Position numbers and translations under genes: made by a program
IMG/VR virus record: IMGVR_UViG_2548876943_000002
Coordinates: 1 to 28,906 of that record
Length of the DNA stretch: 28,906 bases
Source of the DNA: a virus
Taxonomy: Duplodnaviria; Heunggongvirae; Uroviricota; Caudoviricetes
Direction: 5' to 3' (one strand)
Shown here: positions 15,754 through 21,131 of the stretch, piece after piece
Position numbering within the stretch: the stretch's first letter is position 1
Layout of the letters: each line of letters begins with the position of its first letter
The notes under the pieces: generated by a model
What the model saw: the letters and a program-made list of their open reading frames with translations, nothing else
Database searches by the model: none
What the model was told of the DNA's origin: nothing

Positions 15754-17130
15754 ATGGCTACTTGGCAAGGATCAAATGGCGGATTGTTAGCTGGTATCGG
15801 CGGCGTCAACTCAAACGCTCCGAGCGTAAATGACATCGGCAATACGCTTCAGCTTATCAGGCAGAACAATGATATTGAGCGTTCAGGCGCTAACAATGTT
15901 GGGCTGACTGCTTTGCAAGGTCTTTCAGGTATTGCAGGGGTGTTTCAGCAGGAAAAGCAGGCTCAGCGGCAGAAAGAATTTCAGCAGGCATACGCTAATG
16001 CTTATGCGTCTGGTGATCGCGGTGCTTTGCGTCAGTTGGCTACTCAATATCCAGACCAGATTGAATCCGTTCGTAAAGGCATGGGATTCATTGATGAAGA
16101 TCAGCGTAATTCTATCGGCACCTTAGCGGCTGGCGCACGCCTTGCGTCATCGTCTCCAGAAGCAATGCAATCATGGCTGCAAAACAACGCCAAGGAACTG
16201 ACTCGAGTCGGTGTTGACCCTAATAACGTTGCTCAGATGTATCAGCAGAATCCTTCAGGATTTGGTGAGTTTGTTGATCACCTTGGAATGTCAGCGCTTG
16301 GTCCTAATGATTATTTCAATGTTCAGGACAAGATGGCTGGTCGTGAGATTGACCGAGGCAGGCTGGCAGAGACAATCCGCAGCAATCAGGCTGGCGAGGC
16401 ACTTCAGGCGAGAGGGCAAAACCTTTCCTATCAGTCAGCAATGACTGGACACGGACTTGCAGCAGAAAGGCTGGCACTTGATAAGCAGAAATTCGGTTTT
16501 GAAGTACAACAGGCACAAAAGAAGGCCGATGAACTTATTAATGCTGCGCCAAAACTATCTGTGAACATGGAAAAGGCTATAGAAAAATCAGCAGGTGATG
16601 CGGCAGCTAGTCGTAATGCTGCCGATTCAATGACAACGCTTGCTGACACGCTTGAGAAGGAGAAGCCAACTCCTGGTTTGTTCGGTAACGCTGAAAATAT
16701 GTTCACTAAGCTTACGGGGCAAGATAACTACCTCCGAGATATGCGGATTAGATTCAACCAACTAGCCAATGCGCAGGCAACAAAGCTTCTCCCTCCCGGC
16801 CCTGCATCAGATAAGGATGTTGAGTTTGCAAGGAAAGGCATTCCAAGCGAAACGGATAATCCAATGGTCATGGCTCGATGGTTAAGGGGGATGGCAAAAA
16901 TGGAAAGTAATAACGCGAAGTTCAACGAGTTTAGGTCAGAGTGGATGAGTGCAAATGGCAGCCCAGGACAATCTGATCGCAACCGAAACATCATGGGGAT
17001 GGATGTTAAGAAGGGTGAATCATTGAACTCTGCGGCAAAACGTTTTCTTTCCTCAAGTTATGGCGATAGCCAACCTCAACAGCAATTGTCCGATGACGAA
17101 TTAATTAGCAAATATCTCGGAGGGCAGTAA
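15754..17130 (+). CDS. Ejection protein, P22 gp20-like
   Basis: 458 aa, syntenic, low-complexity Q/A-rich composition typical of E-proteins. Confidence 0.7.
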
Positions 17131-18956
17131 TGGCCTATAGTCGTGAACAGTTGATGACGGCGTTAAGGAATGCTGATGCTGCCGGCGATACTGAGGGAGC
17201 ACGTCGCATTGCTCAGATGCTGTCTTCTGGTGATCAATCCACTCAAAACCAATCGCAGCCAGAAGAACAATCTCTGGTGGGAAAAGCTACTGACTGGCTC
17301 ACTGGTGGTCAAAGTGCAGGGCAAATTGCAGAACAGGCTGGTCGTGGTCTGGTAAACATACCATTTGACGTATTGCAGGGTGGCGCAAGTCTGATTAATG
17401 CAATCAGTCAGGGGCTTGGTGGTCCAAAAGTATTGGATGATGTCTATCGTCCAGTCGATCGACCGACAGACCCTTATGCGCAAACTGGAGAAACAATTGG
17501 CGGGTATTTAGTTCCAGGAGTTGGAACGGCAGGAAGCATGGCTATTGGATCACTGGCAGAGGCCGCAAATCAGAAAGGCGATTTCGCACAAAATGCAGCA
17601 AAAAATGCCGGAGTTAACCTTGCCGCTCAGGGGGTTCTTTCCGCAGCAGCAAAGGGAATAGGGCGTGGAATAACGGCTATAAAAGGTGATATTGCGCCAG
17701 AAGTAGCGAAGAAAATTGCCACATCAGAATCGATGGGCGTGACACCAATGACATCTGATGTTATCCCGCCGAAAAATGCTTTCACTCGCGGCCTTACTCA
17801 GGATGCCGAGGGGGCTTTGCTCGGGACAGGCTCAAAGCGAGCGGAGCAATATGCAACGCGTAGTAAGCTGGTAAGCAATTATTTTGACCGTTTTGGTGAG
17901 TACAACCCTGATGATGTGGTGAAATCTCTGACCACCACGTTAAGGGGGCGGAAGGATGCCGCTGGCGCTGTTATCAATGACGTCACCAATAAAATGGGTA
18001 ATGCCGCAGTTGATACCACAAATACCATGAATGCTCTGAATACAGCGATCGCAAGACAGGAACGGCTTGGGACGTCTGCCAATCAAAGCCTGCTTACATC
18101 CTTGCGTAACCTACGTGAAGAATTAGCAAACCCTGCAACTGATTTGGATGTTACGTTTGATCTCTTGCGTCAGCACAGAACAGCATTTAGATCTAATGTT
18201 CAGGGAGATGCTATGGTCTTCCCCAACCAGGCAAAAGCAGCTACCAATATGGTAGAGAATGCAATGTCAAAAGACCTTCGTAACGCAGTTGCAAAAAACC
18301 TCGGTGCGTCAGACGCAGCAAAATACCTTAAAGCAAATTCCGATTATGCAAACGTTTATAATAAGGTGCTTAATAAAAACATTGCCAACAAGCTCAACAA
18401 GGCAAGCAGTGAAGCCAGTCCTGAACTTATAAATACCGTTGTATTAAGCAGAAAACCATCTGACGTGAAACGAATCTGGAGCGCACTGGATGATAAGGGG
18501 AAAGATGCTATGCGTGCAGCTTACGTCAGCAAAATAGCGGAAAAGGCCGGGGACTCTCCAGCCAAGTTCATCACTGAAGTTAATAAGCTGAAATCTCAGT
18601 CAGGCGGTGAAATTTACAACACTATTTTTTCTGGAAAGCACATGAAAGAGCTTGATGCTCTTCATGAAGTTCTACAGCAAACAGCAAGGTCAGACACCGC
18701 AAATGTAGTAACTCAGACGGGGCAATCGCAAGCCAACAGGATAAGGACGATTGGCGCAACTGCGACCCTTGGCGTATCAATGGGGCTTGAGGCTGGTTTT
18801 GGTGCAATGATGCGCTTGTATGAGTCTAAAGCAGCAAGAAACATGCTTCTCCGCCTTGCAAACGTCAAGCCTGGAACTCCGGCATATGAGCGAGCGTTAA
18901 ATCAGGCTGCTAACGCCGTTCGCCCTCTCCTAACTAACGAAGCTACCAGGCAGTAG
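17130..18956 (+). CDS. Ejection protein, P22 gp16-like
   Basis: 608 aa (P22 gp16 is about 609), syntenic; start overlaps gp20-like stop. Confidence 0.7.
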
Positions 18957-18975: not shown

Positions 18976-19305
18976 CTATTTAATTCTCTTTTCAATGGCT
19001 GCAATTATTGCTTTTCCTGATGTTTCAGGAGATTTTGTAGCCATATAAGACGAAAAAATCATGTCGGTCATTCTTTCATAACTTACTATTTCCCACTTAG
19101 CCAATGCATGGGACAGTTTGTAGTTGTCATCAGTTAGTGCCCTTATGGAATTTTTTAAGTGTTTATTCTCTTCAGTTAATCGCGCAATTTTTGTATCAAT
19201 TTCATGTGAGCGATCTAATTCCTTAACCTGTTTCTTGAGGGCAGCTAACCCTGCATATAGTACGCAACAGGATATCCCAAGAGCGAGTACTACTATTTCT
19301 AACAC
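18976..19305 (-). CDS. Small membrane-anchored coiled-coil protein (109 aa); candidate superinfection-exclusion or accessory protein
   Basis: Minus-strand ORF convergent with gp16-like. N-terminal hydrophobic segment (LEIVVLALGISCCVLYAGLAAL) then charged heptad-like region. Sits where P22 carries sieA, but shows no recognisable similarity. Confidence 0.5.
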   Translation of the reverse strand: MLEIVVLALGISCCVLYAGLAALKKQVKELDRSHEIDTKIARLTEENKHLKNSIRALTDDNYKLSHALAKWEIVSYERMTDMIFSSYMATKSPETSGKAIIAAIEKRIK

Positions 19306-19679
19306 ACCAACCTCCTTAGTTTTTCGCAGGATACCAGATGATACTTTATTGGTGGAGTGGTGTGTGAAAACGTGTCAACGACAAACCATCCACAACTTGG
19401 ACGAATGATTTAGCAAAAAGTGCTATTTTTGGTGTTTGGTGTCATAGAAAAGTGAATAGCTCACTTTTCAACATTGCATGAAACTTGCAGGAAATGTGAC
19501 ATTACCTTATAGGTAACTTCGGCGAAAATGCAGTAAATGTGAAACGTAATGGTTTAAACATGTCGCTAAAGTGGTTGTAAGTTAGCCTCCGAAGGATTGC
19601 TGATAGCTTTGTTATAGTATTAAATGACATTTGACATAGTTGGATACTTAGCTGTGGCTATCAAGATGGAGGTGTGTTC

Positions 19680-20123
19680 ATGCTTACTTGTTTTGATGTC
19701 GCCGACTACTTCCTGTCGCGGTGTGACGAGGATAGCGGTGACACAATCTCTAATTTAAAATTACAAAAGCTTGTTTACTATGCTCAGGGTTTTTCATTGG
19801 CGTTGCTTGGCGAGCCTCTTTTTCAGAATAAGATGGAAGCTTGGATGCATGGCCCTGTTGTCCCTGAGCTTTATCGCCGTTATAAACAATATGGTAATGG
19901 CGCTATCCCTTCTCCAGAGTCTTTTGATGCTGAAAAATTCAGCGAAGAACAGTTAGAGCTATTAGAAGAAGTCTGGGATGTTTTTGGGCAATTTTCTGCC
20001 TGGAAACTGAGGAACATGACACACGAAGAGTCACCATGGAGATCAAACTATATTGAGGGTGTTGGTGGTTCTGAAATTAGCTCTAAGGAGATGGCAGAGT
20101 ACTTTGCAACTCGGATTAACTAA
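19680..20123 (+). CDS. Panacea/DUF4065 (SocA/GepA-like) domain protein; candidate PanA-type antitoxin
   Basis: Motif NLKLQKLVYYAQGFSLALLGEPLFQNKMEAWMHGPVVPELY resembles the DUF4065 (PF13274) signature as recalled. GGAGG RBS 8 nt upstream of ATG 19680 (track's non-ATG start at 19674 rejected). AT-rich moron context. Confidence 0.6.
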   Translation: MLTCFDVADYFLSRCDEDSGDTISNLKLQKLVYYAQGFSLALLGEPLFQNKMEAWMHGPVVPELYRRYKQYGNGAIPSPESFDAEKFSEEQLELLEEVWDVFGQFSAWKLRNMTHEESPWRSNYIEGVGGSEISSKEMAEYFATRIN

Positions 20124-20127
20124 CGAG

Positions 20128-20547
20128 ATGGCAAGAAAATCTAAAAGGATTATCCCCCCTGCTGAATCTACAGGTAAGTTAAAGTTAGGGCCGCAGTCAG
20201 GGGGGAATTCAGATCAAAAGAAACCGAAATTTTCATTCTGTTACATCCAAAGCTCTCACTGCATAACGAAATGCCAAAAAGATGAGAAAGCTGGCTTAGC
20301 TGATAAATTATACAGATTAAGTCAACTAACATGGGCAGAGATTAAGCAGCAAGGTAGGCATAAGCTTGGATTTGAGAAGATTGCAAGGGGTGCAATTAAA
20401 GCAGGTATCCCCAGTCATATAACGGAAGACGTAGATCATTTCTTGGCTTTTAGATTTGATGATTTGAAAGCCATGGTTGGTTATCGTCTTGGATCGACAT
20501 TTTTTGTTATATGGCTTGATAGAGAGTTCAACCTATACAAGCACTAA
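20128..20547 (+). CDS. Uncharacterised 139-aa protein coupled to the Panacea-domain gene; candidate toxin/effector partner
   Basis: Starts 4 nt after the upstream stop. Basic N-terminus (MARKSKRIIPP...), C-terminus GYRLGSTFFVIWLDREFNLYKH. No family recognised. Followed by a strong hairpin terminator. Confidence 0.5.
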   Translation: MARKSKRIIPPAESTGKLKLGPQSGGNSDQKKPKFSFCYIQSSHCITKCQKDEKAGLADKLYRLSQLTWAEIKQQGRHKLGFEKIARGAIKAGIPSHITEDVDHFLAFRFDDLKAMVGYRLGSTFFVIWLDREFNLYKH

Positions 20548-20549
20548 TA

Positions 20550-20576
20550 AAACCCACCGTCAGGTGGGTTTTTTGT
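20550..20576. terminator. Bidirectional intrinsic terminator (AACCCACC-GTCA-GGTGGGTT flanked by A-run and T-run), overlapping the mnt stop codon
   Basis: Perfect 8-bp hairpin with TTTTTT downstream and AATAAAA upstream, read from sequence. Confidence 0.75.
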
Positions 20577-20838: not shown

Positions 20839-20859
20839 ATGATAGAAGCACTCTACTAT
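20839..20859. promoter_or_regulatory. Arc operator (ATGATAGAAGCACTCTACTAT) within the Pant/Pmnt divergent promoter region
   Basis: 21-bp sequence matches the P22 arc operator as recalled from the literature; located between mnt and arc. Confidence 0.75.
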
Positions 20860-20868
20860 ATTCTCAAT

Positions 20869-20885
20869 AGGTCCACGGTGGACCT
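20869..20885. promoter_or_regulatory. Mnt operator (perfect 17-bp palindrome AGGTCCACGGTGGACCT)
   Basis: Perfect palindrome read from sequence; matches the P22 Omnt as recalled. Confidence 0.8.
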
Positions 20886-21063: not shown

Positions 21064-21131
21064 AGTGGAAGCCCCAACTGCGGGAACAGTCAGGGCTTCG
21101 GTTGTCAGTAAATCCGTGGAGAAAAACCAAC
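21064..21131 (-). ncRNA. sar: Expected location of sar-like antisense RNA (arc-ant intercistronic region); inferred by position only
   Basis: In P22 a small antisense RNA (sar) is transcribed leftward across the ant RBS. Here the arc-ant spacer contains an imperfect hairpin (GAAGCCC...GGGCTTC). Exact ends not determinable. Confidence 0.3.

Follow-up and report, generated by a model that had tools for sequence, protein, structure and literature searches.

A conserved two-sided leader with a consensus mar/sox/rob box as a candidate regulatory module in the accessory-gene slot of a P22-like prophage

We analysed a 28,906-nt stretch of viral DNA (IMG/VR record IMGVR_UViG_2548876943_000002, positions 1 to 28,906; the whole stretch is called the window), which gene order and the sar RNA place in a P22-like (Lederbergvirus) phage or prophage. 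Our subject is the 374-bp spacer that separates a leftward 109-aa gene from panA, the antitoxin gene that opens a rightward Panacea-type toxin–antitoxin (TA) cassette. Comparison with related loci suggests that this spacer is a conserved, modular, bidirectional regulatory leader with a high-affinity mar/sox/rob box (marbox), lying in the accessory-gene ('moron') slot of P22-like phages, and we give this explanation about an even chance of being correct. The spacer and its two parts are as follows.

19306–19679: spacer, 374 bp, between the 109-aa gene and panA.
19306–19358, minus strand: shared 5′ leader of the leftward cargo, with the ribosome-binding site (RBS) AGGAGG at 19315–19320.
19358–19679, plus strand: portable leader travelling with the panA–toxin cassette, as seen in the lambdoid prophage L005 and in distant homologues.

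The modular character of the spacer was directly visible in its close relatives. It was 94–100% identical in 37 IMG/VR contigs, in 82 of 5426 complete E. coli genomes and in phages Emek, phiv205-1, E212 and EC.P3. The spacer was still 94–98% identical at loci with only 71% identity in PanA and 57% in the toxin, with nearly all of the divergence confined to 19545–19679 and with 19358–19545 about 99–100% identical. The L005 prophage kept exactly 19358–19679 together with panA, downstream of tail-fibre genes, and another prophage (L004, from ETEC6334) kept 19306–19534 without the PanA–toxin cassette and diverged past 19534. On the left side, at least nine unrelated small proteins begin at the identical leftward GTG (19305) in related loci, with the same RBS and leader (the GTG/RBS equivalents lie at 19303–19320 of the window and in L001–L037). 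These left-hand cargo proteins are 62–164 aa long, mostly with an N-terminal hydrophobic segment; true HkcB and a secreted protein resembling Sf6 gp38 are among them. As these alignments have it, the leftward GTG marks a hotspot of cargo exchange, the breakpoint coinciding with the start codon itself. Further mosaic breakpoints fall at 19358, at 19534, near 19545 and at the start codon on the other side, and the first 37 or 53 nt of the spacer alone, without the remainder, were found alongside left-hand genes in ~137 further E. coli genomes. Because the spacer tracks neither the right-hand nor the left-hand cargo, it is, on this comparison, a conserved two-sided hub composed of a short leftward leader (19306–19358) and a portable rightward leader (19358–19679). 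The locus also has several properties of a moron, namely variable cargo at one slot, its own terminator (20552–20575) and a low GC content, which is 38.5% in the spacer against 47.0% for the window, in line with its earlier description as AT-rich.

The rightward leader has more distant homologues as well. The regions upstream of PanA relatives at 67–68% identity (L067 and L038) still aligned with the spacer. More leaders were gathered by the longest invariant block, a 15-mer, and later by an unrelated block. Two sets are free of retrieval bias, the upstream regions of the PanA relatives and 23 unique leaders found via the different block. The leader family homologous to 19358–19679 comprises L067, L038, L099–L188, L207–L234 and the cultured phage HK639 (L206:2416–2891). 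These distant leaders are 300–400 bp long and precede varied two-gene cassettes between lambdoid tail genes, with insertion sites at tail genes K/I and at tape-measure/lipoprotein and M. Among the cargo are a 147-aa PanA paired with a 140-aa protein, a 190-aa PanA-like protein paired with one of 150 aa, a 199-aa protein whose partner is a YafO-type toxin (so annotated in HK639), a Doc-like pair and others. The mean column identity of an alignment of 14 leaders was 61%.

The longest invariant block of these leaders, GCAAAAAGTGCTATT at 19413–19427, reads on the minus strand, together with its flank, as the following element.

19408–19426, minus strand: consensus mar/sox/rob box ATAGCACTTTTTGCTAAAT, with A-box GCAC and B-box TAAA; predicted site for MarA/SoxS/Rob (RamA in Salmonella).

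Marboxes were sought with the pattern AYnGCACnnWnnRYYAAAY, in which the A-box GCAC and the B-box YAAA stand 7 bp apart. The site at 19408–19426 matched with 0 mismatches and was the single exact match in the 28.9-kb window, against 0.04 expected. Compared with the marRAB promoter site GATGCCACGTTTTGCTAAATC, it is identical at 17 of 21 positions, the entire B-box half TTTTGCTAAATC included, and its A-box AGCAC is that of micF. The marRAB site is the one crystallised with MarA, and the mar and micF site sequences are quoted in PMC8279559. Chromatin immunoprecipitation sequencing (ChIP-seq) in Salmonella showed that GCACTTTTTGCAAAA, listed near the phage-named entries gpP and cIIa, is bound by RamA and SoxS and that GCATTTTTTGCTAAA is bound by SoxS (PMC10268841). 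None of the 21 close spacer variants had a substitution inside the box, which is the most strongly conserved of the upstream elements. Full invariance of the 15-mer across the 14-leader alignment proved to be partly an ascertainment artefact and was corrected by the independent-block search, in which 19 of the 23 new leaders had the exact 15-mer, two read ATCGCAC...TTTTTGC and two lacked the region. The sequence-only reading of this DNA saw no DNA-binding domain in the cassette proteins and left the regulator unnamed; the first point agrees with our results, and the second can be improved upon, in that the spacer contains a consensus site for the host proteins MarA, SoxS and Rob.

That reading had also described the spacer as a divergent promoter region, a view which the leftward RBS and GTG start, the predicted leftward elements at 19339–19370 and the rightward elements at 19597–19625 support at the level of prediction. 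The elements concerned are these.

19597–19625, plus strand: predicted cargo promoter, sigma-70-like, with -35 TTGCTG (19597–19602), a 17-nt gap and -10 TTAAAT (19620–19625).
19343–19348 (TAAAGT) or 19339–19344 (TATCAT), minus strand: leftward -10 candidates, with -35 TTTTCA at 19365–19370 for TAAAGT and TTCACA for TATCAT, just past 19358.
19649–19672, plus strand: 5′ untranslated region (UTR) block of PanA-type cassettes, with the hairpin/palindrome TAGC-TGTG-GCTA (19649–19660) and the Shine–Dalgarno sequence GGAGG (19668–19672).

A position-weight promoter scan was performed on both strands of the 14 aligned leaders, and the prediction at 19597–19625 was the only one that held its alignment columns (314–315), doing so in 13 of the 14 leaders; the remaining one, L139, was truncated ahead of this position. 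The rightward promoter family so defined has a -35 of TTGCT(G/C/T), a gap of 17–18 nt and a -10 of TAAAAT, TAGAAT, TACAAT, TAAGAT or TTAAAT, and the TTGCTG/TTAAAT pair of the window is its weakest member. The predicted start of cargo transcription lies near 19632, which would give a leader of ~48 nt with the hairpin at 19649–19660 and GGAGG. The block at 19649–19672 was near-invariant over four PanA lineages whose proteins are 67–71% identical, the only variable positions being 19655 and 19674, and other alleles have ATAGC-TGCG-GCTAT at the equivalent of 19649–19660. For leftward transcription, the candidates within 19339–19370 are TTTTCA-16-TAAAGT and TTCACA-19-TATCAT. An extended -10 element, TGTTATAGT at 19610–19618, was rejected; the sister allele reads TATGGT there, and the element is absent from the distant leaders. 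Small open reading frames (ORFs) within the leaders (of 15–27 aa on the plus and 20 aa on the minus strand) were judged unproven, as they have no Shine–Dalgarno sequence and come to 1–2 codons in the window.

Several observations weigh against the spacer being a regulatory leader with a working marbox. The high identity among prophages may be due in part to recent common descent rather than to selection, and the 15-mer itself had served to fetch 11 of the 14 leaders in the alignment, which introduces an ascertainment bias. All promoters in the spacer are weak matches to the consensus, and since a generic consensus scan returned no strong promoter in the spacer, the promoter assignments are ones that we infer. 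Two classes of marbox promoter have been defined, class II with the box forward, centred near -41 and 18–19 bp from the -10, and class I with the box reversed and centred near -62 or -72 (PMC10268841). The window box fits neither class for any of the predicted promoters: its centre lies ~215 bp from the predicted cargo start and, in forward orientation, ~81–85 bp from the start predicted for leftward transcription. The hexamer found 19 bp past the box reads TGGTTT, and no -35/-10 pair was found at class I distance on the plus strand of the window. Most of the distant leaders have a B-box displaced by a single base (GCACAAAA), with the A-box half and the T-tract kept, and this conserved part could serve otherwise in these leaders, for example as a -35-like TTGCAC. 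A predicted leftward promoter using this TTGCAC was strong only in L124 and L130.

A non-canonical role of the box is nevertheless plausible, because about half of the ChIP-defined targets of MarA, SoxS and RamA fit neither class, and because SoxS binds 294 bp upstream of csgD P1 in Salmonella, where both binding and repression were shown experimentally (PMC10268841). The spacer resembles the csgD case in that the promoter nearest to a good marbox is a long way downstream of it, and differs from it in being known from sequence alone. Likewise, the box is similar to the marRAB site both in its fit to the consensus and in its reverse orientation relative to rightward transcription, but it is a predicted site in a prophage accessory locus, whereas canonical marboxes belong to chromosomal stress genes.

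We also examined the same box in other genomes. Among 38 unique contexts with a complete B-box, 25 had a -10-like hexamer 18–20 bp downstream, 16 of them at exactly 19 bp, over a background of at most about one per offset except at AT-rich positions beside the box and far downstream. The contexts come from T1-like phages and from the Pantoea phage AAM37/Xanthomonas phage DIBBI type; each lacks a -35 and has a small ORF behind a UTR of ~30 nt, which is class II geometry. Contigs of T1-like phages (Drexlerviridae; L194, L145, L166, L102, L090, L093, L201 and others) have many copies of AATAGCACTTTTTGCTAAA(A/C), and the same box occurs in phages of the Pantoea phage AAM37 (L096:1683, 6518, 12704) and Xanthomonas phage DIBBI type. 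In the virulent T1-like and AAM37/DIBBI phages, the copies are followed at 18–20 bp by a -10 of TATAGT, CATAAT or TAATAT, without a -35, and then by a small early ORF behind a short conserved UTR. Our literature search found no publication containing the AATAGCACTTTTTGCTAAA sequence. A phage-encoded MarA-like activator was considered and rejected, since a tblastn search with MarA gave none in T1-like or P22-like phages among the matches listed. Judging by promoter geometry, the T1-like and AAM37/DIBBI phages may draw on host Rob, MarA or SoxS when transcribing their early genes.

In a bacterial set with one genome per species, 28 of the 100 matches (L235–L334) to the 18-mer TTTAGCAAAAAGTGCTAT were in Enterobacterales, a strong over-representation; their contexts in Enterobacterales were varied, and class II geometry was present in only 7 of the 28. 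The 15-mer CTTTTGCAAAAAGTGCTATTC stands just upstream of the LexA-box promoter of a prophage dinI homologue in Gifsy-1/Gifsy-2 (NC_010392 36930–37630), and this dinI-type context recurs in 25 contigs, including L106, L148 and L087; it suggests a possible Mar/Sox/Rob input to the SOS-controlled prophage dinI homologue. Separately, in L128, L110, L132, L101, L164 and the E. coli genome L261, an unrelated coding sequence of ~103 aa (...DDLAKSAIFSK*) ends in 25 nt identical to 19405–19429, and a Fur-box-like sequence comes next after that coding sequence.

Apart from the marbox, the spacer contains several repeats and palindromes.

19447–19469: perfect 9+9 palindrome GAAAAGTGA-ATAGC-TCACTTTTC, core GTGA-ATAGC-TCAC; 0.03 expected in the window.
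19486–19499, plus strand: direct repeat copy 1, TGCAGGAAATGTGA; overlaps the motif 1 palindrome AATGT-G-ACATT (19493–19503).
19502–19516: inverted repeat TTACC-TTATA-GGTAA, the longer form of TACC..GGTA; position-conserved in the leader family.
19529–19542, plus strand: direct repeat copy 2, TGCAGTAAATGTGA (motif 2); starts one base past ATG 19528–19530.
19622–19637, plus strand: motif 3, AAATGACATTTGACAT, including the palindrome AAATG-A-CATTT (19622–19632); over the predicted -10/start and allele-specific.

Direct reading of the sequence confirmed the three motifs that had been reported previously, AAATGTGACATT at 19492–19503, AAATGTGAAAC at 19535–19545 and AAATGACATTTGACAT at 19622–19637, as well as the inverted repeats GTGA-ATAGC-TCAC (19452–19464) and TACC-TTATA-GGTA (19503–19515). 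We found that the first two AAATGTGA copies each form the end of one unit of a 14-nt direct repeat, TGCAGKAAATGTGA, which has the form TGCAG(G/T)AAATGTGA and occurs at 19486–19499 and 19529–19542, 13 of 14 positions being identical and the copies lying 43 bp apart. In dinucleotide shuffles of the 374-bp spacer, a direct repeat of equal length arose in 14 of 500 and a perfect stem of at least 9 bp in 9 of 500; three copies of AAATG(TGA/ACA), a motif defined post hoc, arose in 0 of 2000. By itself, AAATGTGA occurs three times in the whole window against 2.2 expected, and two of the three occurrences are in the spacer. The direct repeat and the 9+9 palindrome are real and modestly beyond chance. 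In the 14-leader alignment, however, the AAATGTGA motifs were not conserved in the distant leaders. At the position of copy 1 these have other small palindromes (AATAGT-TT-ACTATT or GTGATT-CTGC-AATCAC), copy 2 aligns with TAACTTGCAAAG, and at the position of the 9+9 palindrome there is a different palindrome, ATAGGC-N3-GCCTAT; TTACC-N5-GGTAA was present in 11 of the 14. At motif 3, the sister allele reads AAATGCAACTTGACAC and has its own inverted repeat, CAACT-N6-AGTTG. The alignments thus indicate that the AAATGTGA repeats are a lineage-specific local duplication and not conserved PanA–toxin operators. A two-codon mini-ORF, ATG-CAG-TAA (MQ*), lies at 19528–19536; in the L004 prophage (L004:3223–3381, corresponding to the window from 19528 onward) this ATG opens an unannotated 52-codon coiled-coil ORF, and it is at this place that the distant leaders have their 15–27-codon ORFs.

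It is possible, if doubtful, that the upstream 200 bp are a recombination linker or a decayed remnant with no regulatory function of their own, persisting as a flank for homologous cargo exchange, and that the marbox and the palindromes are relics of an ancestral promoter. Mosaic breakpoints inside the spacer or at its edges are what such a linker would show, and the window marbox has no partner -10, while the same box elsewhere stands in intact class II promoters. The small ORFs that are intact in distant leaders have shrunk to MQ* and MV* in the window, and two non-compensatory changes in the 9+9 palindrome are tolerated in the variants L026 and L032. This explanation fits less well with the retention of the box core in 19–21 of the 23 independently found leaders, whose flanks fall to ~60% identity, with palindromes that hold their positions though their sequences differ, and with an exact consensus match that is improbable by chance.

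The sequence-only reading took the repeats for clustered operators of an autoregulated pair. In the form weighed here, a PanA–toxin complex or the 109-aa protein would control both genes, with the AAATGTGA/AAATGACA motifs and the pair of inverted repeats as operators. We consider this unlikely. Autoregulation is the norm in type II TA systems, and the repeats and palindromes are, as noted, modestly above chance in shuffles. Copy 3 and its palindrome overlap the predicted -10/start and change together with the PanA allele, and every cassette of the PanA (147 aa) type, but no other, has the ATAGC-N4-GCTAT palindrome in its 5′ UTR. On the other side, copies 1 and 2 and both inverted repeats are unchanged where PanA and the toxin diverge to 71% and 57% or are absent (L004), and also where the left gene has been swapped for unrelated genes, and the AAATGTGA sequence is lost in distant leaders. 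Moreover, PanA is a bare Panacea domain, and neither the toxin nor the 109-aa protein gave a match to a DNA-binding family; Pfam, NCBIfam and PHROG searches thus agree with the earlier remark that such a domain is not obvious in the three. Both PanA proteins that have helix-turn-helix (HTH) domains and PanA proteins that lack them are known (PMC8832971), and the bare Panacea domain here is consistent with this since only some of them carry an HTH. Short palindromes do occur at or just past the predicted -10 and start (19622–19632; 19649–19660), as in type II TA operators, and vary or persist with cargo; in contrast to such systems, PanA lacks HTH, ribbon-helix-helix and AbrB modules, and the larger upstream repeats do not covary with cargo. 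The operator proposal is thus not supported for copies 1 and 2 and for both inverted repeats, which are independent of cargo, and survives for copy 3 (19622–19637) as a possible cargo-specific operator; motif 3 and the 5′-UTR palindrome track cargo type, in a few lineages only.

Catabolite control of the cassette, with AAATGTGA as CRP half-sites and the 9+9 palindrome as a CRP/FNR-type site, is extremely unlikely. The left half of the CRP consensus AAATGTGATCTAGATCACATTT equals AAATGTGA, and the palindrome does contain GTGA...TCAC. Neither AAATGTGA copy, however, has a recognisable second half-site 6 bp off, copy 1 matches the consensus at 9 of 22 positions, and the GTGA and TCAC of the palindrome are separated by 5 bp rather than by the 6 bp of a TGTGA-N6-TCACA dyad; nor are the motifs conserved in homologous leaders. 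CRP and Cra sites were both rejected, the half-sites being partnerless or wrongly spaced.

The inverted repeats could alternatively be hairpins of a structured RNA encoded by the spacer, be it a small RNA or a long 5′ leader with a regulatory role, which we regard as very unlikely. Several short stem-loops do stand at equal positions in leaders of different sequence, and the minus-strand fold has a z-score of -1.96. The plus-strand z-score, however, is -1.16, and neither the spacer nor one homologous leader matched Rfam at gathering or permissive thresholds (E up to 10). The RNAalifold consensus amounts to only about -4 kcal/mol with almost no covariation, a formal pair count finds no compensatory change in the TTACC/GGTAA helix, candidate leftward RNAs of homologous leaders fold no better than shuffles, and no conserved promoter and terminator bracket an RNA. 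A leftward small RNA running from the box to a terminator-like GGGGGCG...TTTTAACC of distant leaders was rejected for its shuffle-like folds and for the absence of this block from the window.

The genes and features around the spacer are listed next; the flanking genes match their earlier description.

15754–17130: gene 20.
17130–18956: gene 16.
18976–19305, minus strand: leftward 109-aa gene, with an N-terminal transmembrane segment and a coiled coil; phrog_8100, which has no assigned function.
19680–20123, plus strand: panA, 147-aa Panacea (SocA/DUF4065) antitoxin; Pfam PF13274, E = 1.8e-24, residues 28–120.
20128–20547, plus strand: putative cognate toxin, 139 aa; phrog_8366, 53–57% identical in sister cassettes.
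20552–20575: terminator-like hairpin ACCCACC-GTCA-GGTGGGT with a T-run, closing the cassette and adjoining the mnt 3′ end; read from the sequence.
21064–21131, minus strand: sar antisense RNA (Rfam, 91.5 bits).

PanA matched the NCBIfam SocA_antitoxin family under its cutoff, and its start is most likely ATG 19680 rather than GTG 19674, with GGAGG at 19668–19672. No Pfam or NCBIfam family matched the 139-aa partner protein. A rho-independent terminator is annotated at the equivalent of 20552–20575 in phage Emek; a simple general scan did not list this hairpin. Downstream of the cassette, the order is mnt, arc, the sar antisense RNA, ant and the tailspike gene, and we recognised ATGATAGAAGCACTCTACTAT at 20840–20860 as what we take to be the P22 Arc operator and GGTCCACGGTGGACC at 20871–20885 as what is presumably the P22 Mnt operator. 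Since the sar RNA and these two operators appear P22-like, the immI module seems to be intact beside the cassette. From the surrounding gene order, the Arc and Mnt operators and the terminator hairpin it follows that the spacer occupies the accessory-gene slot between gene 16 and the immI region, which holds sieA in P22 and hkcB/hkcC in HK620. Action of Arc or Mnt on the spacer was rejected, as the P22 operators lie at 20840–20885 and have nothing in common with it. The label 'hkcB-like' was likewise rejected for the 109-aa gene, which equals hkcB in slot and length and shows no sequence homology to it. Two tandem tRNA genes are present at 2392–2463 and 2472–2544, in the early-to-late phage region.

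If the spacer is indeed a bidirectional regulatory leader, the following arrangement can be proposed. The left edge (19306 to ~19370) would supply an RBS, a GTG start and probably a weak sigma-70 promoter to any small gene, mostly for a membrane protein, that is plugged in leftward. The right part (19358–19679) would be a portable leader moving with TA cargo. There, a weak sigma-70 promoter (start near 19632), followed by a conserved 5′ UTR that has a hairpin and a strong Shine–Dalgarno sequence, would drive the two cassette genes, panA and that of the toxin, as far as the terminator at 20552–20575. Upstream of these, a platform of ~200 bp would hold the high-affinity marbox (19408–19426, minus strand) and three short palindromes. 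Host Rob, which is constitutive, or stress-induced MarA or SoxS would bind the box and modulate the leader promoters from a non-canonical, distal position, and moron expression might thereby be coupled to envelope, oxidative or antibiotic stress of the host. The locus has much in common with the P22 sieA and HK620 hkcB and hkcC morons, namely the slot, small variable genes of lower GC content, promoter-like sequences, a terminator and patchy presence. It differs from them in that a single conserved leader between the genes takes interchangeable cargo on either side, and the point of exchange coincides with the leftward start codon. The marbox and the moron promoter region are both of already-known kinds, and what the spacer adds is a recurrent leader module.

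A broader and distinctly unlikely extension is that the leader family (~300 bp) would be a mobile 'stress-wiring' module that ties TA or defence cassettes and leftward membrane-protein morons to the Mar/Sox/Rob regulon. If this were true, T1-like phages would use the same optimised marbox as an early-promoter activator site, so that prophage leader and invading phage would compete for, or jointly respond to, one host factor, and TA activation could be linked to infection or to antibiotic stress. For phage biology, the arrays of canonical class II marbox promoters in T1-like phages may outweigh the spacer in importance. The spacer also cautions that lineage-specific repeats should not be taken for operators without comparative data. 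It raises the question of whether host MarA, SoxS or Rob controls a Panacea-type cassette together with the adjoining exclusion-like gene, and of whether a shared portable leader is the basis on which unrelated cargo is exchanged and expressed at one phage slot. The regulation of prophage TA and defence cassettes without a DNA-binding antitoxin is little understood, and this locus offers a concrete candidate regulator for a Panacea-type cassette.

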